Below, piece after piece: positions 20,401 through 32,594 of a DNA stretch of 64,000 bases (positions are counted from its first letter, which is position 1; every line of letters starts with the position of its first letter). The stretch is from an uncultured Chryseobacterium sp. (GTDB taxonomy: Bacteria > Bacteroidota > Bacteroidia > Flavobacteriales > Weeksellaceae). A program made the translations under genes and the position numbers. The notes below the pieces were generated by a model. It was given only the letters and a program-made list of their open reading frames with translations, had not been told where the DNA came from and ran no database searches. The stretch spans positions 161,032 to 225,031 of the forward strand of contig CAURNW010000007.1 of assembly GCA_963526305.1 (NCBI GenBank), read 5' to 3'.

Positions 20401-20471
20401 AGACCCATGGTGTAACGGTAGCACTCTGGTTTTTGGTACCATCAGTTGGGGTTCGAATCCCTGTGGGTCTA
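20401..20471 (+). tRNA. tRNA-Gln (anticodon UUG), copy 1
   Basis: Hand-folded cloverleaf. The 7-bp acceptor stem agaccca/tgggtct pairs fully. D-arm gtgt/gcac. Anticodon loop ttTTGgt. T-arm tgggg-ttcgaat-ccctg. No encoded CCA. Confidence 0.9.
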
Positions 20472-20479
20472 CATTTAAG

Positions 20480-20553: not shown

Positions 20554-21142
20554 TCAATACAAGCCAATAATTTTCACTGTTCCGTCAATTTCTATTCTTC
20601 GAAGGTTTACTTTTCCATCTAATCCCATTTTTTTTCATGTTTCAAAAAATAAAGTTTCTACTCCTAAATTGTTTATTTCACCATTGCTATCAATACATTT
20701 GGTTCCGTTTAAAATAGGTTCTTTTAAATCCTTTGAAGAATCTCTATATTTATCTGAAAACAAGTCTAATTGTTCCTGTGAAAATTCGTCAAAGCATCCT
20801 GGTAAGTCCCGTTAAACAAAATAACATAATGCATTCTATTTGGTGTGACCATTCCCATAAAAGCGTTATTTACATTTGCAGGATCAGAAGTAGGCTGCGC
20901 TCTTGCAAATCCTAATAATTGATCAATATCCGGAGGCGAGAGCATCGGAATACCTGTCGGAGTATGGTTGTGATATGCTCTCCTGTATATCCTGTTTTGT
21001 CACCAAAATTTACACTGTGGGCACCTCCTGTTATCGTAGCAGAAGGTGTGCCGTCTGTTTTAAACTTGACTCCTTTTTCACCACCGGCAGTAGATTGTGT
21101 TTTAAGTTCATTGATTTTTGCCTGAACTTTCAGATTTTCCAA
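20554..21142 (-). pseudogene. Orphan cassette 4: decayed JAB-like C-terminal module. It has the 2-nt insertion plus further frameshift and stop lesions, and no partner gene.
   Basis: The upstream 76-aa piece is identical to orphans 2 and 3. The downstream reading MLSPPDIDQLLGFARAQ...NFHRNN* breaks after 57 aa. Homology (..LFFET*KKMGLDGKVNLRRIEIDGTVKIIGLY*) can be followed in other frames down to 20554. Confidence 0.75.
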
Positions 21143-21288
21143 CGTTTTTTAGTTTATTAAAAGGTGTTTTTTTCTAATGCTAAATTTATATCCTGCACAA
21201 TCCTCACTATTCGTTTCTCAATTTAGAGAATTATTTTACTGTTTTGTAAAAATCAAATCTTTGGTTTCAGGAAGATAAATATTGATAT
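20809..21288. repeat. Direct repeat copy A (480 bp, identical by eye to 22118-22597)
   Basis: Base-by-base comparison of the two stretches. The block spans the conserved core of the toxin-like module, the 93-nt linker and the last ~17 codons of the upstream partner gene. Confidence 0.9.
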
Positions 21289-21820
21289 CAGTTCCATCTG
21301 GACATTTAGTACTATCAAGAATTATATCATTGGGGCGATATTCCCATGAAATTTGCGAAGTATTTATTTTTTTTAGAATAATTTTACCCCAACCAACACC
21401 ACAGTTTGTTCCGCCGTAGCTAAATGTAATGGCATTTAGACTTGGAAGAGTTCTCATACTAACAATTGTATGTTGTATCTGATTAGAATGAAAAGTCATG
21501 TTCTGAGTATTTTGGATAATTATTCCAGATAAATTCTGTACAATATATTTAATTAATAGTACATCTCTGTAAAATTCTTGATCACCTAAATCTACTAATG
21601 TATGTATTTCTTTTGTTATAAAAATTGTAATTTTTTTATCTTGAAAATCAGCTTTATAGGTGCCAACATATGGATCCAATTCATTATCTATATCTTTTAA
21701 ATATGCATTCGAAGTGGTGTTTTCCAACAAAGTGTTTAAAGGTAAAATCTGTGATTTACAGGATAATACATTCATTAAAAGAATGAAAATTACTATTGAT
21801 TTTGTATTTATTGATTTCAT
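21236..21820 (-). CDS. Partner (immunity-like) lipoprotein, paralogue 4
   Basis: 194 aa. Signal peptide plus lipobox (NVLSC|KSQ). Family motifs YGGTNCGVGWG and KCPDGTDINIYLPETKDLIFTKQ. Starts 17 nt after the orphan-3 stop. Confidence 0.8.
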   Translation of the reverse strand: MKSINTKSIVIFILLMNVLSCKSQILPLNTLLENTTSNAYLKDIDNELDPYVGTYKADFQDKKITIFITKEIHTLVDLGDQEFYRDVLLIKYIVQNLSGIIIQNTQNMTFHSNQIQHTIVSMRTLPSLNAITFSYGGTNCGVGWGKIILKKINTSQISWEYRPNDIILDSTKCPDGTDINIYLPETKDLIFTKQ

Positions 21821-21837
21821 ATTTTTATTTTAGTGTT

Positions 21838-22451
21838 TTACAAACAAGGGACAGGAATTGGATTGTTATTATTATCTAAATTTATTTTTATAATTGTTCC
21901 GGTGCTCTGTATGCGTTGAAGGTCTATCTTACCCTCTAAGCCCATATATTTAATAGTTTTAAAAAATAATTTTTCCACACCACTACTATTTAGCGGACCT
22001 CCTAAATAATTTGTGTACAATAAATTTAAAGATAACTCATCTTCTATTTCTCCATATTTCTTCACATATTTATCCAAATCATCTTGCGAAAAATTAGTCA
22101 ATGCATCCTGATAATTTCCGTTAAACAAAATAACATAATGCATTCTATTTGGTGTGACCATTCCCATAAAAGCGTTATTTACATTTGCAGGATCAGAAGT
22201 AGGCTGCGCTCTTGCAAATCCTAATAATTGATCAATATCCGGAGGCGAGAGCATCGGAATACCTGTCGGAGTATGGTTGTGATATGCTCTCCTGTATATC
22301 CTGTTTTGTCACCAAAATTTACACTGTGGGCACCTCCTGTTATCGTAGCAGAAGGTGTGCCGTCTGTTTTAAACTTGACTCCTTTTTCACCACCGGCAGT
22401 AGATTGTGTTTTAAGTTCATTGATTTTTGCCTGAACTTTCAGATTTTCCAA
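21838..22451 (-). pseudogene. Orphan cassette 3: JAB-like C-terminal module split by a 2-nt insertion
   Basis: A 76-aa piece (22221..22451) ends out of frame after GDKTGYTGE. The 138-aa piece (21838..22254) resumes at MLSPPDIDQLLGFARAQ and carries a unique variable segment plus a conserved tail (EKLFFKTIKYMGLEGKIDLQRIQSTG). Confidence 0.8.
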
Positions 22452-22597
22452 CGTTTTTTAGTTTATTAAAAGGTGTTTTTTTCTAATGCTAAATTTATAT
22501 CCTGCACAATCCTCACTATTCGTTTCTCAATTTAGAGAATTATTTTACTGTTTTGTAAAAATCAAATCTTTGGTTTCAGGAAGATAAATATTGATAT
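22118..22597. repeat. Direct repeat copy B (480 bp, identical to copy A)
   Basis: Same comparison as for copy A. The offset is exactly 1309 bp. Confidence 0.9.
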
Positions 22598-23111
22598 TTG
22601 TTCCTTGTGGGCATTTAGTATAATCAAGAATAATATCATTAGGTCGATATTCCCATGAGATTTGAGTGGAGCTAATTTTTTTTAATTCAATACCTCCAAA
22701 GCCTACACCACAATTTGTTCCACCATAATTAAACCATACGATGCCTTTACTAGGATAAGTTCCTCGACTATATATTGTGTGTAGAAGTTGATTAGGCTGA
22801 AAAATCATACTTTGTGTATCTTGAAGAATATTTCCTGCTGAATTTTTAACAATATATCTTATAGACAGTGCGTCCTGATAAATATTTAATGATTTAAAAA
22901 ATCTCATTGTTTCCTTGTTAATGAATAATTTTATTTCATTTCCTTGAAAATAAGCTTTATACTCTCCTACATAAGGACTTAATTCGTTATTTAAATCTTT
23001 TATATAAGAGCCTTGTGGAATTTCTTCAAAATCTGTATTAAGAGGATAGGTTTGTTGTGCTTTGCACGAAATTGAAATAACGAATAAAATTAAATATTTT
23101 ATATTTTTCAT
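22545..23111 (-). CDS. Partner (immunity-like) lipoprotein, paralogue 3
   Basis: 188 aa. Signal plus lipobox (VISISC|KAQ). YGGTNCGVGFG and KCPQGTNINIYLPETKDLIFTKQ. Confidence 0.8.
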   Translation of the reverse strand: MKNIKYLILFVISISCKAQQTYPLNTDFEEIPQGSYIKDLNNELSPYVGEYKAYFQGNEIKLFINKETMRFFKSLNIYQDALSIRYIVKNSAGNILQDTQSMIFQPNQLLHTIYSRGTYPSKGIVWFNYGGTNCGVGFGGIELKKISSTQISWEYRPNDIILDYTKCPQGTNINIYLPETKDLIFTKQ

Positions 23112-23130
23112 ATTTTTTCTTTTTAAGATA

Positions 23131-23723
23131 TTAAGGACAAGTCGTAGTGGTTGTTGTTCCGTCAGTATTTTTATTTATTGTTTTTATAGTTCCATCATTT
23201 TCTATTCTTTGTAAATTAACTTTACCATCTAATCCCATATCTTTAAGCGCTTTGAAAAAAAATCATTCGATTGCTTCATTACTTACATCGCCAGTAGAAG
23301 GTTTATACATATCATATCTAGTTTGATAATCTCTTCCAAAAGCATCTAAATCAGATTGTGAATATGTAGTTATAGCATCCTGATAGGTTCCGTTAAACCA
23401 AATAACATAATGCATTCCATTTGGTGCGACCATTCCCATAAAAGCGTTGTTTACATTTGCAGGATTAGAAGTAGGTTGCGCTCTTGCAAATCCTAATAAT
23501 TGATCAATATCCGGAGGCGAGAGCATCGGAATACCTGTCGGAGTATGGTTGTGATATGCTCTCCTGTATATCCTGTTTTGTCACCAAAATTTACACTGTG
23601 GGCACCTCCTGTTATCGTAGCAGAAGGTGTGCCGTCTGTTTTAAACTTGACTCCTTTTTCACCACCGGCAGTAGATTGTGTTTTAAGTTCATTGATTTTT
23701 GCCTGAACTTTCAGATTTTCCAA
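23131..23723 (-). pseudogene. Orphan cassette 2: JAB-like C-terminal module with the 2-nt insertion plus an in-frame TGA
   Basis: The 76-aa piece (23493..23723) is identical to those of orphans 3 and 4. The 87-aa piece (23263..23526) ends ..NEAIE-TGA. The same frame then continues FFFKALKDMGLDGKVNLQRIENDGTIKTINKNTDGTTTTTTCP to the TAA at 23131. Confidence 0.8.
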
Positions 23724-23866
23724 CGTTTTTTAGTTTATTAAAAGGTGTTTTTTTCTAATGCTAAATTTATATCCTGCACAACCCTCACTATTCGTTTCTC
23801 AATTTAGAGAATTATTTTACTGTTTAGTAAAAATCAAATCTTTGGTTTCAGGAAGATAAATATTAA
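23477..23866. repeat. Direct repeat copy C (305 bp perfect match to copies A and B at 23477-23781, then near-identical to ~23866)
   Basis: Base-by-base comparison. The first mismatch on the upper side is at 23782 (c vs t). Offset to copy A is 2581 bp. Confidence 0.85.
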
Positions 23867-24401
23867 TATCAGTTCCATTCGGACATTTACTACTATCAAG
23901 AATTGTATCATTTGGTTGATATTCCCAAGAGATTTGATTTGAGTTTAGTTTTTTTAAATATATACTTCCCCAGCCGACACCACAATTTGTACCTCCATAA
24001 GAAAACATTACTAAATTATGATAAGGATTAATCATTGTACTGAAAATAGTGTGTCGAATTTGATTAATATCAAAGTTCATATTTTGAGTGTCTTGGAGCA
24101 CATTTCCTGATAAATTTTTAACAATAAATTTTATAGATAAAACATCTTTATAGAATTTTTGACTTCCAAAATTTTTGAGCGTCTTTTCTTGTTTATTTAT
24201 ATAAATTATAATATTATTTCCATTGTATGTTGAAGTATATGTTCCAATATATGGGTTTAATTCATTGTTTAAGTCTTTTAAATAAGAATAATCAGGTATA
24301 TTTCTAAAATCTGTATTTAATGGATATTCTTGTGCTTTACAAGATAAAAAACTTATGAAAAGACTAAAAAGAATTATTGTTTTAATATTTATTGTTTTCA
24401 T
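23817..24401 (-). CDS. Partner (immunity-like) lipoprotein, paralogue 2
   Basis: The ORF track gives 23817..24428. The likely start is MKTINIKTIILFSLFISFLSC|KAQ at 24401. YGGTNCGVGWG and KCPNGTDINIYLPETKDLIFTKQ. Confidence 0.8.
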   Translation of the reverse strand: MKTINIKTIILFSLFISFLSCKAQEYPLNTDFRNIPDYSYLKDLNNELNPYIGTYTSTYNGNNIIIYINKQEKTLKNFGSQKFYKDVLSIKFIVKNLSGNVLQDTQNMNFDINQIRHTIFSTMINPYHNLVMFSYGGTNCGVGWGSIYLKKLNSNQISWEYQPNDTILDSSKCPNGTDINIYLPETKDLIFTKQ

Positions 24402-24415
24402 ATTGAATATTTTAA

Positions 24416-24967
24416 TTATTGTGAGCATGTTGATGAAGTTGGTTGATTGCTACTATTAAGACTTACTATTTTTACTGTGCCATCACTTTCGATTCTTTGT
24501 AAATTTACTTTACCTTCTAAACCCATATTTTTTAGTGTCTCAAAGAACAATTTTTCTAAACCGTTACTATTTAGATTTAAATGGTCACTTGAATAGAAGG
24601 GATTTAATAGAAAAAGGTCTTTGTAAGCTAGATAATTATCTGAAAATCCATCTAGCTGAACTTGTGAGAAATTCGTCAAAGCATCTTGATAATTTCCGCT
24701 AAACCAAATAACATAATGCATTCCATTTGGTGCAACCATTCCCATAAAAGCGTTATTTACATTTGCAGGATTAGAAGTAGGCTGCGCTCTTGCAAATCCT
24801 AATAATTGATCAATATCTGGAGGCGAGAGCATCGGAATACCTGTCGGAGTATGGTTGTGATCTGCTCGTGCATATCCTGTTTTGTCACCAAAATTTACAC
24901 TGTGAGCACCTCCTGTTATTGTAGCAGAAGATGTGCCGTCTGTTTTAAACTTGACTCCTTTCACCAC
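24416..24967 (-). CDS. Orphan cassette 1: 5'-truncated JAB-like C-terminal module with an intact HNH...S..D motif, no signal peptide, and probably silent
   Basis: 183-aa ORF from a GTG start. Upstream homology continues to the ATG at 25016 (MKVRKKINELKTQYTAGGE) but is out of frame because of a 2-nt deletion in an A-run (gaaaaagg to gaaagg). The C-terminal 47 aa are identical to the full-length gene. Confidence 0.6.
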   Translation of the reverse strand: MVKGVKFKTDGTSSATITGGAHSVNFGDKTGYARADHNHTPTGIPMLSPPDIDQLLGFARAQPTSNPANVNNAFMGMVAPNGMHYVIWFSGNYQDALTNFSQVQLDGFSDNYLAYKDLFLLNPFYSSDHLNLNSNGLEKLFFETLKNMGLEGKVNLQRIESDGTVKIVSLNSSNQPTSSTCSQ

Positions 24968-25119
24968 CGGCAGTATATTGTGTTTTAAGTTCGTTGATTT
25001 TTTTCCGAACTTTCATATTTTCTAATGTGTTTTCGTTTACTACAGGGTTGTTCGTTTCTAATACTAGATTTGTATTAGGACCAATTTTCACTATTCGTTT
25101 CTTGATTTAGAAAATTATT

Positions 25120-25692
25120 TTACTGTTTTGTAAAAAGCAAATCTTTGGTTTCAGGAAGGTAAATATTAATATCCGTTCCACTTGGGCATCTACTACTATC
25201 TATAATTATATCATCGGGGTGATATTCCCAAGATAATTGAGTTGTGCTTATTTTTTTTAAAATAATATCTCCCCAGCCTACGCGACAATTTGTTCCACTG
25301 TAATAGAAAATAATGGAATTTATATCAGGTCTTGGCTTAATACTAAATAATTTAATTTGAGAATTACTATTGTTTTTCGTGTCTTGAAGTACTTCTCCAG
25401 AAGAGTTTTTAACTATATATTGAATATCTAAAATATCCGAATAATAATTTTTTAAAGAACTTTTTTGTAAAACATTTTCAACTTTTGTAATATATAGTGT
25501 AATTTCTTTTCCATTAAAAGTAGCTTTGTAAATTCCTTCATATGGAGGTAATTCATTATTTAAATCTTTTTTATGTGCATTGGCTGGAATATCTTTCAAA
25601 GGTGTATTCAAAGGTATTGTCTGTGCTTTACAAGATAAAAAACTTATGAAAAAACTAAAAAGAATTATTGTTTTAATATTTATTGTTTTCAT
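25120..25692 (-). CDS. Partner (immunity-like) lipoprotein, paralogue 1 (cognate of the full-length gene)
   Basis: The ORF track gives 25120..25719. The likely start is MKTINIKTIILFSFFISFLSC|KAQ at 25692, 14 nt after the upstream stop. Family motifs SGTNCRVGWG and RCPSGTDINIYLPETKDLLFTKQ. Confidence 0.8.
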   Translation of the reverse strand: MKTINIKTIILFSFFISFLSCKAQTIPLNTPLKDIPANAHKKDLNNELPPYEGIYKATFNGKEITLYITKVENVLQKSSLKNYYSDILDIQYIVKNSSGEVLQDTKNNSNSQIKLFSIKPRPDINSIIFYYSGTNCRVGWGDIILKKISTTQLSWEYHPDDIIIDSSRCPSGTDINIYLPETKDLLFTKQ

Positions 25693-25706
25693 ATTGAATA
25701 TTTTAA

Positions 25707-27338
25707 TTATTGTGAGCATGTTGATGAAGTTGGTTGATTGCTACTATTAAGACTTACTATTTTTACTGTGCCATCACTTTCGATTCTTTGTAAATTTACT
25801 TTACCTTCTAAACCCATATTTTTTAGTGTCTCAAAGAACAATTTTTCAACACCTGCATTATTTATTAAACCATTACTATTAACATATGTAGTTCCATTTA
25901 AAATTGGTTCCACTAAATCATTCTTTAATATTCGATAATCAATATTAAAAGTATTCAATTGTTCTTGTGAGAAATTAGTCAAAGCATCCTGATAGGTTCC
26001 GTTAAACCAAATAACATAATGCATTCCATTTGGTGCGACCATTCCCATAAAAGCGTTGTTTACATTTGCAGGATTAGAAGTAGGCTGCGCTCTTGCAAAT
26101 CCTAATAATTGATCAATATCCGGAGGCGAAAGCATCGGAATACCTGTCGGAGTATGGTTGTGATATGCTCCTGCATATCCTGTTTTGTCACCAAAATTTA
26201 CACTGTGGGCACCTCCTGTTATCGTAGCAGAAGGTGTGCCGTCTGTTTTAAACTTGACTCCTTTTTCACCACCGGCAGTAGATTGTGTTTTAAGTTCATT
26301 GATTTTTGCCTGAACTTGCGGATTTGTTAAAATAGCTTTCGTTTTTGTACAGGGATTGTTAACAATTTGATCATAAAACTGCTCCCATGTCAGATTAGGG
26401 TTTTCCATAAAAACCTGTATCGCAAAATTAGCAAAATCTTGATAATAGCTATTTTGCGGAGGAGATAAAGGTGGGATATGGTCAAGATAATATTCTAAAA
26501 TGTTACAATAAATATCAGCATGCTCTACAGCCCAGGATTTCGCCTGATCGGTTTGTGAGTGGAAAAAGCTACCCGCTCTTGCTGCTCTTACGTAGGATGG
26601 TTCAATTGTGGGGGGAATATTAGGGTCAAAAGTGTAGCCGCTCGGGTCATACAATCCTGTTCCTCCACCGCCTCCGCCATTGTCACCACCTCCTGGGAAA
26701 CTTCCGCCTCCTCCTGTACTTCCGCCACCGCCACCTCCGCATTCATAAGAAGTATAGCCTGAACTGGTGAAAAGACATTGAGCGCACTTATCGCATTGTG
26801 ACCATGACTGCCCCTCTTTACAATGCCATATTTCTATGGAATAAAAATCTGAACATATTCTTGCTGTGGATGGATTATTTATTTTTGTTACAATGCCTTT
26901 CTGAGAATCATATACAGGAATTAGCTCGTTATCTAAAATCTTAACAATTGAAAATGCTACATCATTGGCATTTTTTCTATAAACAAGATTGTAAACGGTT
27001 TCCGGGTTTTCAAAAATATTATACGCTCGTAAAGCATAGGTCTGAGTGTTGTTGACATCCATTTTGTAAATGGAAGTCTCGTCAATAAAGAATCTTCTTA
27101 GATAATCAGTGTTCGCACTGCTTTTGCCAGATAAGGGATTATCTGTTCTTTTAAAGTCATTGACCCCACTCAAAAAAGTCTCTTTTTGAAAAATACCTGT
27201 ACTGATTTTTTGATGAATGTGTTCTCCTGATTTTTCTTCATTGTGTTTTACTATTGCTTCTAAATCAGTTCTACAGGAATGGAAAGTGATACTAATGGCT
27301 ATCAGTAAAGACAACCACAAAATAAATTTGTTTTTCAT
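25707..27338 (-). CDS. Full-length lipoprotein with a C-terminal JAB/JAMM-like module (putative polymorphic toxin)
   Basis: 543 aa. Signal plus lipobox (ISITFHS|C). Cys-rich block (CSDFYSIEIWHCKEGQSWSQCDKCAQCLF...YEC). Gly-rich linker GGGGGGSTGGGGSFPGGGDNGGGGGGTG. Core GGEKG-x-..GGAHSVNF..AYHNHTPTGIPMLSPPDIDQLL, i.e. E...HxH-x8-S-x2-D. Confidence 0.85.
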   Translation of the reverse strand: MKNKFILWLSLLIAISITFHSCRTDLEAIVKHNEEKSGEHIHQKISTGIFQKETFLSGVNDFKRTDNPLSGKSSANTDYLRRFFIDETSIYKMDVNNTQTYALRAYNIFENPETVYNLVYRKNANDVAFSIVKILDNELIPVYDSQKGIVTKINNPSTARICSDFYSIEIWHCKEGQSWSQCDKCAQCLFTSSGYTSYECGGGGGGSTGGGGSFPGGGDNGGGGGGTGLYDPSGYTFDPNIPPTIEPSYVRAARAGSFFHSQTDQAKSWAVEHADIYCNILEYYLDHIPPLSPPQNSYYQDFANFAIQVFMENPNLTWEQFYDQIVNNPCTKTKAILTNPQVQAKINELKTQSTAGGEKGVKFKTDGTPSATITGGAHSVNFGDKTGYAGAYHNHTPTGIPMLSPPDIDQLLGFARAQPTSNPANVNNAFMGMVAPNGMHYVIWFNGTYQDALTNFSQEQLNTFNIDYRILKNDLVEPILNGTTYVNSNGLINNAGVEKLFFETLKNMGLEGKVNLQRIESDGTVKIVSLNSSNQPTSSTCSQ

Positions 27339-29938: not shown

Positions 29939-30009
29939 AGACCCATGGTGTAACGGTAGCACTCTGGTTTTTGGTACCATCAGTTGGGGTTCGAATCCCT
30001 GTGGGTCTA
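29939..30009 (+). tRNA. tRNA-Gln (anticodon UUG), copy 2 (71/71 identical to copy 1)
   Basis: The sequence is identical to 20401-20471, so the cloverleaf is the same. Confidence 0.9.
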
Positions 30010-30014
30010 CTTAT

Positions 30015-30312: not shown

Positions 30313-30720
30313 ATGGAGCATAAAATACATCAGGGAAGAAATATCAAACGATTTAGAGAAATGCTGGGCATCAAACAGGAAGCTCTGGCTTTTGATCTGG
30401 GTGAAGAATGGAATCAAAAGAAAGTTTCTCTGTTGGAGCAGAAAGATATAATTGACGATACTTTACTTCAAAAAATATCTGAAGTTTTAAAGGTTCCCGT
30501 AGAAGCTATTCAGAACTTCGATGAGCAGTCAGCGATACATATTATTGCGAATACAATTACCAATCATGACAATGGATCTGTTTATAATAACCATCCGATA
30601 TTTCAGCCGATTGATAAACTGATACAACTTCATGAGGATAAAATTGCTCTCTATGAACGTATGCTGAAAGAGAAAGATGATATGATGGCAAGGTTTGAGA
30701 AGCTAATTAAAAATAACTGA
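30313..30720 (+). CDS. XRE-family helix-turn-helix transcriptional regulator
   Basis: 135 aa. GRNIKRFREMLGIKQEALAFDLG...VSLLEQ is a typical HTH_3 pattern. Confidence 0.75.
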   Translation: MEHKIHQGRNIKRFREMLGIKQEALAFDLGEEWNQKKVSLLEQKDIIDDTLLQKISEVLKVPVEAIQNFDEQSAIHIIANTITNHDNGSVYNNHPIFQPIDKLIQLHEDKIALYERMLKEKDDMMARFEKLIKNN

Positions 30721-30832
30721 CTTTTTTGTTATATTATTTAGTAAATGCAGTTTAATCTGATATTCAAATGTAAGCTATTTAATATACAGATTCTTATATT
30801 TCCTAAAAAATTTATCGACCTTTATATTAAGT

Positions 30833-31192
30833 TTAGTAAAATCCTTCTTTTTCTCTAAATTGCATTTTATCCATATATTTATCTATACAGTTAATATCTT
30901 CTTCCCATATATTAGAAAATTTGGACCATTTACCATCGGGATCGAAATCAATAGATAATTCATTAATAACATTTATAAACAGGTTATCATTGAAAGCTTG
31001 ACCACTACAATTAGCAATTCTCTCATTTATTAAGGTTAATACAATATGTTTAATATTCTTCACATTCTTGAACTTTAAAACTATATAAATTAATAGTATT
31101 AATACAAAATGATAATCAAGTATATTATTTTTTATTTTTTCATATTCAAAATCTAAAATTTTTTTAAAATCTAACTGAATTTTTTCTTCCAT
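30833..31192 (-). CDS. Hypothetical protein
   Basis: 119-aa ORF in very AT-rich DNA. No recognisable motif. Confidence 0.4.
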   Translation of the reverse strand: MEEKIQLDFKKILDFEYEKIKNNILDYHFVLILLIYIVLKFKNVKNIKHIVLTLINERIANCSGQAFNDNLFINVINELSIDFDPDGKWSKFSNIWEEDINCIDKYMDKMQFREKEGFY

Positions 31193-31361
31193 ATAATTTT
31201 ATTTAGGAAACTGTTCTACTGTCTGATATTTCTCCTATTATCAACAAAGAAAGAAAATCTAGCAACCTGAATTATCAAACAATTGAAGAATTTAACAATC
31301 AAAACAAAATTTATAAAATGTAGCTTAACTTACACTGGAATTTATTTGTATATCCAGGTAT

Positions 31362-32594
31362 TTATTTTTTATTTTTTATTTTTTCCCACTCTACAGCATA
31401 AGGGTATAAATATTTTAATTCCGGTTTTTTATATAATGAATCCTCTTTATATTTTTTAATAAAATAAGATAGATCAGGGTTTTTATTTAAAGGAGGAAAC
31501 ATCATATATCTGACACCTCCTTTAAAACCTTTTTCTTTAACAATATCCTCTCCTACTTTAGTCTGCTCTGTTATTTTAAATGCTGCAAAATATATTAATG
31601 GAAGTAAAAATGGGAGAAAAAAATAAATCTTTCTTGGAAAATAATCCATTCCTCTTCCTATAAATATTAAAAGAAAAACATATGGGACTAAATGAAAAAC
31701 GTATATATCCGAAACATTGTGTTTTATACAGAAAAACAGGAAAGGGGTAATTCCTACAGCTATGTAATCAATTCTTTCTTTATTTCTTAATCCTAAAAAA
31801 ATAAAGAAAACAAAAAAAAGAAAATTATATAATAAAAATCCTATATTCCTAACAATACTTTTGAAGATTATTTTAATATTAAAATTGAAAATAGAATCTT
31901 GATAAGCATTATCAGTAAAAATGGATAAAAGAGAATGATATCCTAGTGCCACTGGGATCAATAAAATTGAAAATATAATGATCAGAATCAATCCTCCGTA
32001 AATAATATGCTCCTTAAGGATTTTATAATTTTTAAAAATTAAGTAGAAGTAAATAGGAATAAAAAGTATTGACTGAATATGTATCAAAAAAAGAATACCA
32101 AAAATAATCGATAGATAATAAAAATACAAAGGCTTTCTTTCCTGAAGAAACTTAAAAATATTAATTAAAAATAAAATAACAAAAACTAAATAAAAAGTAT
32201 ATACCTCAGTTATTACGGACATCCTCCAGAAAGTAAATGAAAAACCAAAAAGCAGCAAACATATAAATGATGATCTACGTGAAATACCCACTATATATAA
32301 TAGTTTATTTAAATAGTAAAGTGAAAGTACTGACGAAATAATACTAATCCCTACGCATACAGAGTGTACATTTTGAAAAGGTAATATTTTGTAAATTAAT
32401 GAGAGGAAATTCGAATATAAAAAGTGGTTTGTAGCATTAGATTCGAAGACAAATCCATGATAAGCTTGAATGGTAAAAGGTAAACTGTCACCTAAAGAAG
32501 GATCTTTTGCTGATGAATACACATAAATTAATGCTAATAACACCAAGCAGATAATTATATAAAGGTCAAATCTCTTATTTGATAAAATATTCAT
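31362..32594 (-). CDS. Polytopic integral membrane protein, possibly a GT-C-type/DUF2723-like glycosyltransferase
   Basis: 410 aa with at least 10 hydrophobic helices. The N-terminal loop DPSLGDSLPFTIQAYHGF resembles the acidic first loop of GT-C enzymes. Weak, by-eye. Confidence 0.45.
   Translation of the reverse strand: MNILSNKRFDLYIIICLVLLALIYVYSSAKDPSLGDSLPFTIQAYHGFVFESNATNHFLYSNFLSLIYKILPFQNVHSVCVGISIISSVLSLYYLNKLLYIVGISRRSSFICLLLFGFSFTFWRMSVITEVYTFYLVFVILFLINIFKFLQERKPLYFYYLSIIFGILFLIHIQSILFIPIYFYLIFKNYKILKEHIIYGGLILIIIFSILLIPVALGYHSLLSIFTDNAYQDSIFNFNIKIIFKSIVRNIGFLLYNFLFFVFFIFLGLRNKERIDYIAVGITPFLFFCIKHNVSDIYVFHLVPYVFLLIFIGRGMDYFPRKIYFFLPFLLPLIYFAAFKITEQTKVGEDIVKEKGFKGGVRYMMFPPLNKNPDLSYFIKKYKEDSLYKKPELKYLYPYAVEWEKIKNKK

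Follow-up and report, generated by a model that had tools for sequence, protein, structure and literature searches.

Orphan cassettes together with a tract of homology represent a principle established for the Rhs, CDI and MafB systems. In Rhs and CDI loci, a main gene is followed by C-terminal fragments that lack a start and are accompanied by their own immunity genes, a tract of near-identity lies upstream of the variable part, and recombination within this tract can produce a fusion of main gene and orphan (Poole et al. 2011, PMC3150448; Koskiniemi et al. 2014, PMC3967940). For the main and orphan rhs of Salmonella, the orphan Rhs toxin becomes active after recombination within a stretch of 522 bp that is 95% identical (PMC3967940). 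Among the toxins of Bacteroidetes, Tox-JAB-1 is strictly paired with the lipoprotein Imm65, which is described as unique among immunity proteins in having a signal peptide and a lipobox, and Tox-JAB-2 (DUF4329) is found in phages and giant viruses (Zhang et al. 2012, PMC3482391). Kirchberger et al. (2017, PMC5361080) describe arrays of immunity genes in Vibrio cholerae T6SS clusters that result from sequential effector displacement, and Vassallo et al. (2017, PMC5562445) describe SitA, the lipoprotein polymorphic toxins of myxobacteria.

We analysed a stretch of 64,000 nucleotides from an uncultured Chryseobacterium sp., hereafter the window, which probably contains a polymorphic toxin/immunity-type locus with orphan cassettes that undergo concerted evolution, and which would belong to a family of Chryseobacterium and its relatives. 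Cassettes arranged in this way are familiar from Rhs and CDI loci, but the protein family is uncharacterised. As in these loci, the main gene is followed by start-less C-terminal fragments with their own immunity-like genes, and a tract of near-identity (about 365 bp at about 96%) precedes the variable part, within which recombination could fuse the main gene to an orphan. In contrast to Rhs and CDI, the Chryseobacterium locus exhibits no RHS/YD repeats, no CdiA/CdiB and no VENN or DPxGL boundary motif. Its carrier is a lipoprotein of 440-600 aa, and what varies is a segment of about 45 residues inside one fold; unrelated toxin domains are not exchanged. Like the carrier, the immunity-like protein is a lipoprotein. 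The heads of the orphans contain frameshifts, and the cassette is bordered by homology at its 3' end too, formed by a DUF6705 tail and a spacer.

Organisation of the cassette array

According to the open reading frames and translations of the 20.4-27.4 kb region, all genes of the array lie on the minus strand. The following features were assigned:

25707-27338, minus strand, main gene, full-length, 543 aa (open reading frame and translation)
25710-26357, minus strand, C-terminal module (CT) of the main gene, plausibly JAMM/JAB-like, variable segment at about residues 126-172, type A
25120-25719, minus strand, IM0, DUF6705 lipoprotein gene (Pfam DUF6705, E=9e-8)
24416-25048, minus strand, orphan cassette C1, module head from residue ~10, variable segment of type B
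23817-24428, minus strand, IM1, intact DUF6705 gene (Pfam and open reading frame)
23137-23746, minus strand, orphan cassette C2, variable segment of type C
22545-23111, minus strand, IM2, intact DUF6705 gene (Pfam and open reading frame)
21838-22474, minus strand, orphan cassette C3, variable segment of type D
21236-21820, minus strand, IM3, intact DUF6705 gene (Pfam and open reading frame)
20560-21165, minus strand, orphan cassette C4, decayed tail resembling type A
20401-20472, plus strand, tRNA-Gln(ttg), adjoined by C4 at the distal end of the array

The product of the main gene carries a lipoprotein signal peptide (..ITFHSC), followed by an N-terminal domain, a Gly-rich linker and a middle region, and ends in the C-terminal module of 216 aa; it is 100% identical to P0001 from an uncultured Chryseobacterium sp. 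The stop codon of the main gene is overlapped by IM0, its presumed cognate immunity partner. In each of the units of C1 to C3, a 93-nt spacer precedes the conserved head of a module, and a type-specific segment leads on to a matching DUF6705 gene. The orphans have no N-terminal domain, no start and no signal peptide, and all of them begin at module residue ~10. None is expressible as it stands. C1 carries a 2-bp deletion near residue 32 (~24957-24967), the remainder being in frame, and a 2-bp insertion is present in the heads of C2 (~23562-23567), C3 (~22290-22295) and C4 (~20981-20986). C2 exhibits in addition a TGA nonsense codon at 23263-23265; the tail of C3 is intact; that of C4 contains further stops and frameshifts and is followed by no DUF6705 gene.

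A second, identical copy of the tRNA-Gln gene is located at 29939-30010. An integrative element between the two copies was considered and rejected, as there is no integrase between them; the genes found there include a DUF1440 gene and a Branch-type glycosyltransferase gene.

Exact repeats at the cassette junctions

Two kinds of exact repeats are observed in the array:

20809-21288, 480 bp, copy 1: tail of IM3, 93-nt spacer and head of C4
22118-22597, 480 bp, copy 2: tail of IM2, spacer and head of C3
23477-23781, 305 bp common to all three copies, copy 3: spacer and head of C2
24363-24556, identical to 25654-25847, 194 bp, second kind, shared by C1 and the main pair: module end and first ~20 DUF6705 codons (signal peptide)

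The initial annotation had reported perfect repeats of the first kind, spaced by about 1.3 kb and straddling gene boundaries, with strongly diverged sequence between them and more diverged copies further along the array. This description was reproduced in all its parts. Copies 1 and 2 are identical over exactly 480 bp, the match ending on both sides, and the identity of 305 bp extends to all three copies (20896-21200 = 22205-22509 = 23477-23781). Beyond it, the third copy remains near-identical, with one mismatch followed by 43 exact bp (21202-21244 = 23783-23825). The measured spacings are 1309 and 1272 bp, pairwise identity between the blocks is 31-70%, and the diverged copies at 24661-25052 and 25964-26360 are 91% identical to each other. 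The content of the block was also as annotated, namely the tail of a partner gene, a spacer and the conserved core of a toxin-like module: on the minus strand, it comprises the last ~17 codons and the stop of the DUF6705 gene, the 93-nt spacer, and the module head down to ..MHYVILFN. The perfect repeats are conserved cassette junctions, and an exact repeat of 480 bp cannot arise by chance in 64 kb.

The spacer is non-coding and identical in the three copies. Sigma-70-type and terminator-like sites are no more frequent in it than in shuffled sequence, and no Bacteroidetes-type TAnnTTTG motif is found within its 93 nt. The frameshifting 2-bp insertion, located just before the HxH motif, is common to the three perfect copies. 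Compared with the main gene, the orphan heads are 95.6-96.7% identical over 364-365 bp, and ~205 bp of this ~365-bp homology between main gene and orphans lies downstream of the frameshift.

Homogenisation of the junctions

Synonymous differences among the five heads, including that of the main gene, amount to 0-6 of ~80 identical-residue codons (0-7%), while the module tails and DUF6705 bodies within the array differ synonymously by 28-48% in 12 of 13 comparisons. Constraint at the protein level was rejected as the cause of the identity, because the same head codons differ synonymously between species, with a median of 44% against 20 other genomes. A GENECONV-like permutation test on the polymorphic sites of the array units, of the type proposed in the initial annotation, gave p<=1e-4 for the four pairs U1-U2, U1-U3, U2-U3 and U3-U4. 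Separate exact tracts of 480, 305, 194 and 143 bp are present within the array. Judging from these patterns, non-reciprocal recombination, by gene conversion or by unequal crossing-over, has evidently homogenised several separate tracts at the array junctions. The earlier proposal of recent gene conversion or duplication limited to the blocks is borne out by the synonymous contrasts, the identical non-coding spacer and the permutation test. The variable segments evidently represent old allelic types, which are common to several species. The locus provides a compact case of concerted evolution at cassette junctions, in which old, horizontally shared specificity types lie between junctions homogenised within one genome.

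In the arrays of relatives, the corresponding blocks are mostly 60-98% identical, which is ordinary divergence, so that perfect identity is not family-wide. Such divergence is part of the pattern that had been named beforehand as arguing against a maintained recombination substrate, and it leans to episodic events over permanently maintained homogenisation.

That a decaying locus underwent a single recent segmental duplication, which left a graveyard without a continuing role in recombination, is an unlikely explanation. Such a duplication would copy whole units, whereas the identity is limited to the junction blocks, and the segments between them, at 31-70% identity, belong to different old types. 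The tracts (480, 305, 194 and 143 bp) number at least four and end at different points, which requires several events, and all five heads, including that of the functional main gene, are almost without synonymous divergence. A 232-bp tract shared by main gene and orphan at 97.8% identity in an unrelated genome (L035) also argues against it. A single duplication would nevertheless be in line with the inactivating 2-bp insertion common to three perfect heads, with the nonsense codon of C2, with the decayed and partnerless C4, with the ordinary divergence in the arrays of relatives, and with the main gene of L036, whose head is also broken.

An artefact of assembly or polishing, by which near-identical repeats were collapsed or over-polished or cassettes were misjoined, is very unlikely. 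The source name, "uncultured Chryseobacterium sp.", suggests that the genome is probably metagenome-assembled, and assembly or polishing could have inflated the identity. The exact main protein is recorded only from an uncultured Chryseobacterium sp., on one contig (228,131 bp). Exact-protein look-ups with the main protein and IM2 returned no second strain or assembly with the array, and a second copy was likewise missing from the results of two DNA scans of metagenomes, the first of which spanned the frameshift allele, the other being partly degenerate; these searches gave neither the array nor the frameshifted allele from an independent source. However, the block boundaries are sharp and differ from one another, their unique flanks encode intact and distinct DUF6705 genes, and isolate genomes exhibit the same architecture, with tracts at 92-98% identity. 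An artefact could alter the exact identity of the repeats, but not the existence of the cassette array.

Pairing with DUF6705 proteins across genomes

The assignment of a toxin/immunity-type locus is consistent with the distribution of the module and its partner, which co-occur in Chryseobacterium, Epilithonimonas and Pseudopedobacter. A DUF6705 gene is located directly 3' of the module in all related genome loci (33/33). Many of these loci carry extra copies, with 2-4 DUF6705 genes each, and in L022, L028, L031 and L035 there are orphan module fragments, with a DUF6705 gene after each of them. Other genomes exhibit runs of DUF6705 genes without module fragments. This pairing, the orphan fragments and extra copies elsewhere, and the JAMM-like residues fit the earlier description of a toxin-like module with a partner. 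In L036, the main gene is itself broken in the head region. The closest full-length homologue of the main protein, P0002 (71% identity), lies in a different context, as a single pair.

The variable segment of the module sorts into discrete types, and the DUF6705 proteins of the window are closest to the partners of the same module type in other genomes (partial correlation 0.56). IM2 is 84-86% identical to the DUF6705 partners of type C modules in four other genomes, and the nearest homologues of IM1 elsewhere have partner modules that are mostly of type B. The DUF6705 proteins have a signal peptide with ..LSCKAQ, as a lipoprotein partner in Bacteroidetes, and the AlphaFold2 model of IM0 is a small beta-barrel (pLDDT 87).

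Silent-cassette antigenic variation of a surface lipoprotein, of the pilE/pilS kind, with an epitope diversified against phages or predators, would account for one expressed lipoprotein gene with start-less partial copies, for a short variable segment between conserved flanks and for the signatures of gene conversion, but it is the least probable explanation: the silent copies are not variant segments only, as in pilE/pilS, since every cassette also carries a complete, co-varying second gene with its own signal peptide; DUF6705 runs without module fragments elsewhere are the pattern of an immunity array; the module retains an invariant catalytic-type motif; and several of the silent copies are dead, a condition incompatible with a working variation system.

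Proposed function of the array

In a polymorphic toxin/immunity-type locus, the module would be toxic, the DUF6705 proteins would confer immunity, and switching may be ongoing. The junction homology (~365 bp, ~96%) would permit recombination between the main gene and an orphan, which would change the type of both toxin and immunity protein and would parallel the Salmonella rhs experiments. An in-frame fusion could only result from a crossover in the last ~205 bp of the homology between main gene and orphan, and the same homology could lead to gain, loss or conversion of cassettes. Given the head frameshifts, the nonsense codon of C2 and the decay of C4, part of the array resembles a graveyard whose only intact genes seem to be the immunity-like ones. 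The intact DUF6705 genes are probably kept as protection against the toxin types of other strains, with several orphan toxin parts decaying.

In this respect the array resembles the V. cholerae T6SS arrays, where old immunity genes also remain intact downstream of the current effector, with remnants between them. In the Chryseobacterium array, by contrast, the remnants share their start (module residue ~10) and their spacer, and are mutually homogenised, which points to propagation and conversion within the array over simple serial displacement. No T6SS genes were seen nearby.

Combining these elements, one may tentatively envisage an undescribed antibacterial toxin family of Flavobacteriia, comprising the module and DUF6705, with a working type-switching array, although this full picture is rather doubtful. 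A lipoprotein-borne JAB-like enzyme would act in the cell envelope of the target, and the beta-barrel lipoprotein would neutralise it, with specificity residing in the exchangeable segment of ~45 residues. Copy-and-paste conversion into the expression site would be possible through the homogenised junctions that flank each variable unit, and translation of the silent copies would be blocked by their frameshifted heads. Should the toxin/immunity function be confirmed, the known interbacterial toxins would gain an uncharacterised family of several hundred sequence clusters, a lipoprotein toxin of Chryseobacterium and related Flavobacteriia whose immunity partner is a lipoprotein as well, and DUF6705 would be assigned a role.

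Structure and family of the C-terminal module

In an alignment of 66 module sequences (A1), E31, H66, H68 and D80 are invariant and S77 is nearly so. The canonical metal-binding motif of JAMM/MPN+ proteins is E..HxHx7SxxD; the module has 8 residues between HxH and S, versus 7 in this motif. In its AlphaFold2 model (pLDDT 96), a strand ends at HxH and a helix begins at S..D. Foldseek searches against the PDB gave weak matches, none below E=1e-3, the plausible best being JAMM/MPN proteins: PfJAMM1 (5ld9; probability 0.91, TM-score 0.49 on the target), BRCC36 and the Jab1 domain of Prp8. Against a viral library, 10 matches at E<1e-3 were obtained. The best of them (E down to 3.5e-7) are uncharacterised phage proteins, and weaker ones (E 6.9e-3 to 0.35) comprise MPN- or JAB-named proteins, p25 of Xanthomonas phage Xop411 and giant-virus proteins. 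Pfam searches returned only noise for all 66 alignment members at E<=10; Pfam, on the window proteins and ten homologues, and NCBIfam yielded no family for the module, and a sequence search of the PDB matched only the Gly-rich linker. From the conserved residues and the predicted fold, a JAMM/JAB-like module is plausible.

The module shares with Tox-JAB-1 its occurrence in Bacteroidetes and the E, HxH, S and D residues of what is plausibly a JAB-like domain; its DUF6705 partner has a signal peptide and a lipobox, like Imm65; and, as with Tox-JAB-2, structural matches are found in phages (a Xanthomonas phage related to OP1) and giant viruses. It differs from the Tox-JAB domains in that no Pfam model covers it and its partner matches DUF6705 only, in the lack of RHS repeats, in the absence of the NxxxE motif (T27 is at that position), and in the 8-residue spacing from HxH to S. 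Like the putative toxin described here, SitA has a lipoprotein carrier with a C-terminal toxin, but it belongs to an unrelated taxon and has an unrelated sequence; outer-membrane exchange is not a known delivery route in Flavobacteriia.

Among the matches to the window protein and the best 150 of 765 profile matches (E<=1e-3), the module is C-terminal throughout. One protein, P0250 (1630 aa, 22 repeats), was set aside, as it looks like a spurious repeat protein. The carriers (400-600 aa) gave no matches to RHS repeats. They exhibit varied N-terminal regions and lipoprotein signal peptides, a lipobox being present in 154 of the 185 full-size members of the family.

Organisation of the cassette array

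The perfect direct repeats are the junctions between the cassettes of an array in which every gene lies on the minus strand. The main gene and its DUF6705 gene (unit C0) are followed by four orphan cassettes (C1-C4), each comprising a 93-nt spacer and then a copy of the C-terminal module of the main gene, starting from residue ~10. An intact DUF6705 gene follows three of these four cassettes, and the four DUF6705 genes of the array are all intact.

Features of the array
27338-25707, minus strand: main gene, 543 aa, with a lipoprotein signal peptide, an N-terminal domain, a Gly-rich linker and a 216-residue C-terminal module (residues 328-543)
25719-25120, minus strand: IM0, DUF6705 gene of the main pair, 199 aa, with a Pfam DUF6705 match, overlapping the main-gene stop codon
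24428-23817, minus strand: IM1, DUF6705 gene of C1, intact
23111-22545, minus strand: IM2, DUF6705 gene of C2, intact
21820-21236, minus strand: IM3, DUF6705 gene of C3, intact
21165-~20560, minus strand: C4, fourth orphan cassette, with extra stops and frameshifts and without a partner, ending at the tRNA-Gln gene (20401-20472)
21143-21235, 22452-22544 and 23724-23816: copies of the 93-nt spacer, with a short inverted repeat (TTCTC TAAAT TGAGAA) directly after the DUF6705 stop codon

The repeats described in the initial annotation were recovered as claimed. The segments 20809-21288 and 22118-22597 are identical over 480 bp, with the identity stopping on either side, and the three-way identity covers 305 bp (20896-21200, 22205-22509 and 23477-23781), beyond which a single mismatch is followed by 43 bp more of exact match. 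The repeat family comprises five copies, with spacings of 1309, 1272, 1306 and 1303 bp. The two distal copies, reported as diverged, show 72-77% identity in an ungapped comparison of 300 nt and 91-97% by BLAST over the conserved ~365-400 bp, while the sequence between blocks, also reported as diverged, exhibits pairwise identities of only ~31-70%. The content of each block was likewise correctly described: it comprises the final ~17 codons of a DUF6705 gene, followed by the spacer and by the module head as far as ..MHYVILFN. An additional exact direct repeat of 194 bp (24363-24556 and 25654-25847), absent from that list, spans the module end and the codons for the DUF6705 signal peptide, and occurs once in the main pair and once in orphan cassette C1.

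The spacer showed no prominent promoter-like signals and no match to a promoter or terminator consensus. A 2-bp (GA) insertion at residue ~63, just 5' of the HNH motif, is common to the three perfect heads; C1 has its own 2-bp deletion at residue ~32, and C2 an additional TGA at 23263-23265.

The module and its carrier proteins

A database protein from an "uncultured Chryseobacterium sp." matches the main protein with 100% identity. Well in excess of 100 Chryseobacterium/Epilithonimonas proteins, whose N-terminal regions differ, end in a region that is 50-80% identical to the last ~215 residues of the main protein. A module profile gave 765 matches at E<=1e-3 among 1.84 billion cluster representatives; among the best 150 of these, the full-size proteins have 400-600 aa and carry the module at the C-terminus. 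A recognisable lipobox is present in 154 of 185 full-size family members, many of the remainder being truncated gene calls.

None of the Pfam and NCBIfam models matches the module, and the sole match in a PDB sequence search is to the Gly-rich linker. The invariant columns are C3, E31, H66, H68, D80, Y114, G120 and E171, with S77 nearly so. Judging by sequence, the module residues form a putative JAMM-type E..HxH..S..D pattern, in which the spacing from H to S is longer by one residue. The AlphaFold2 model of the module is confident (pLDDT 96, pTM 0.92) and shows a strand ending at HxH and a helix beginning at S77/D80. Foldseek gave no match in the PDB with E<1e-3; the plausible top matches, all weaker than this, are the JAMM/MPN proteins PfJAMM1, BRCC36 and Prp8 Jab1. 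Among predicted viral structures, 10 matches were below 1e-3, each to an uncharacterised protein or to one named as a minor capsid protein, and weaker matches (E 6.9e-3 to 0.35) comprise proteins named MPN/JAB, Xanthomonas phage Xop411 p25, and algal-virus and pithovirus proteins. For the DUF6705 protein, the model (pLDDT 87) shows a lipoprotein signal peptide followed by a small beta-barrel, with no significant match in the PDB.

Polymorphic toxins include two JAB clades (Zhang et al. 2012, PMC3482391). Tox-JAB-1 is Bacteroidetes-specific and its partner, Imm65, is the sole lipoprotein immunity protein of that survey, while Tox-JAB-2 (DUF4329) is known from giant viruses and from phages, OP1 among them (PMC3482391). 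The module/DUF6705 pair is similar to Tox-JAB-1/Imm65 and Tox-JAB-2, yet falls outside their sequence definitions.

Pairing of the module with DUF6705

The module profile recovered 33 genome loci, and in every one of them a DUF6705 gene lies directly 3' of the module. Many related loci exhibit runs of two to four DUF6705 genes, and four of them (L022, L028, L031 and L035) contain module fragments, each followed by a DUF6705 gene. The variable segment of the module (residues ~126-172) has a mean identity of 37%, versus 71% for the head, and sorts into discrete types that are common to several species. The window contains types A (main gene, the expressed one), B (C1), C (C2) and D (C3), as well as a decayed A-like copy. 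For each DUF6705 protein of the window, the nearest relatives are the partners of the same module type in other genomes; IM2, for instance, shows 84-86% identity to the DUF6705 proteins paired with type C modules in four genomes, versus ~55% to its array neighbours. With head identity controlled for, DUF6705 identity and variable-segment identity show a partial correlation of 0.56. From this pairing pattern, we infer that the module and DUF6705 constitute a toxin/immunity-type pair, in which the module would be toxic and DUF6705 would neutralise it.

Origin of the block identity

The five heads of the array differ synonymously at just 0-6 of ~80 identical-residue codons. In contrast, the module tails and DUF6705 bodies exhibit 28-48% synonymous differences in 12 of 13 comparisons; only C0-C1 deviates, its tails containing the 194-bp exact repeat. 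The same head codons are, at the median, 44% synonymously different from those of 20 other genomes. Three copies of the non-coding spacer are identical, the frameshifting insertion is likewise the same in three copies, and several exact tracts with differing end points are present (480, 305, 194 and 143 bp). A permutation test on polymorphic sites was significant for four cassette pairs, although uneven constraint along the unit can inflate it. The best reading is repeated non-reciprocal recombination inside the array, by gene conversion or unequal crossing-over. Given the synonymous contrasts, the identical spacer and the permutation test, the earlier proposal of recent gene conversion or duplication was essentially right.

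The exact identity, or the cassette order, may owe something to assembly or polishing: the name of the source record suggests a metagenome-assembled genome, and exact-protein look-ups of the main protein and IM2, together with two metagenome DNA scans, turned up no second, independent occurrence of the array. The segments between blocks belong to different old types, which excludes whole-unit duplication, and protein-level constraint is ruled out by the synonymous contrasts, the identical spacer and the shared insertion.

The initial annotation had counted ordinary divergence in relatives' arrays among the signs against a maintained recombination substrate; the corresponding blocks in other genomes mostly do show such divergence (60-91% identity), with occasional tracts at 97-98%. 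Homogenisation therefore looks episodic rather than a constant property of the family.

Possible role of the junction homology

Conserved DNA on either side of each variable unit could allow conversion, deletion, duplication or fusion to the main gene. In Salmonella, main and orphan rhs genes recombine across 522 bp at 95% identity, which deploys the orphan toxin (PMC3967940); the orphan heads of the Chryseobacterium array match the main gene over 364-365 bp, at 95.6-96.7%. Because of the 2-bp insertion, in-frame crossovers would be limited to the ~205 bp downstream of it, and would be expected between ~26170 and ~25965. Active products could not arise in any case from C2, which has a nonsense codon, or from C4, which is decayed. 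Thus, some of the array, at least, looks like a relic whose immunity-like genes alone were probably maintained by selection. The locus is probably a polymorphic toxin-type system with orphan cassettes and a recombination tract, of a well-known kind, comprising here uncharacterised JAB-like lipoproteins and DUF6705.

Genomic neighbourhood and related loci

Two identical tRNA-Gln(ttg) genes on the plus strand (20401-20472 and 29939-30010), which with their flanks form ~141 bp at 90% identity, bracket a 9.5-kb segment. Besides the cassette array, this segment encodes a DUF1440 protein and a Branch-type glycosyltransferase, and no integrase. The module/DUF6705 pair is located ~2 kb or less from tRNA genes (Gln, Val, Ala, Glu, Cys, Asn, Arg) in 8 of 31 related loci, which suggests tRNA-adjacent hotspots. 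The loci entered for tRNA neighbourhood are L003, L005, L010, L012, L013, L025, L028, L031 and L033. The last of these has an AMP-binding gene and a tRNA-Gln flank as in the window; its family member shows 45% identity only, and lies in the opposite orientation ~4 kb from the tRNA gene.

In another related locus (L036, 6838-8432; GCA_000282115.1), the main gene is broken in the module head, at residues ~41-51, and the downstream DUF6705 gene is intact. The remainder is called as an ORF from Met75, the same result that the gene caller gave for the orphans of the window.

The region ~30500-32500 of the window is very AT-rich (GC 0.23-0.25, versus ~0.35 around it) and carries a PMT_2/TMEM260-like membrane glycosyltransferase gene (31362-32594, minus strand).
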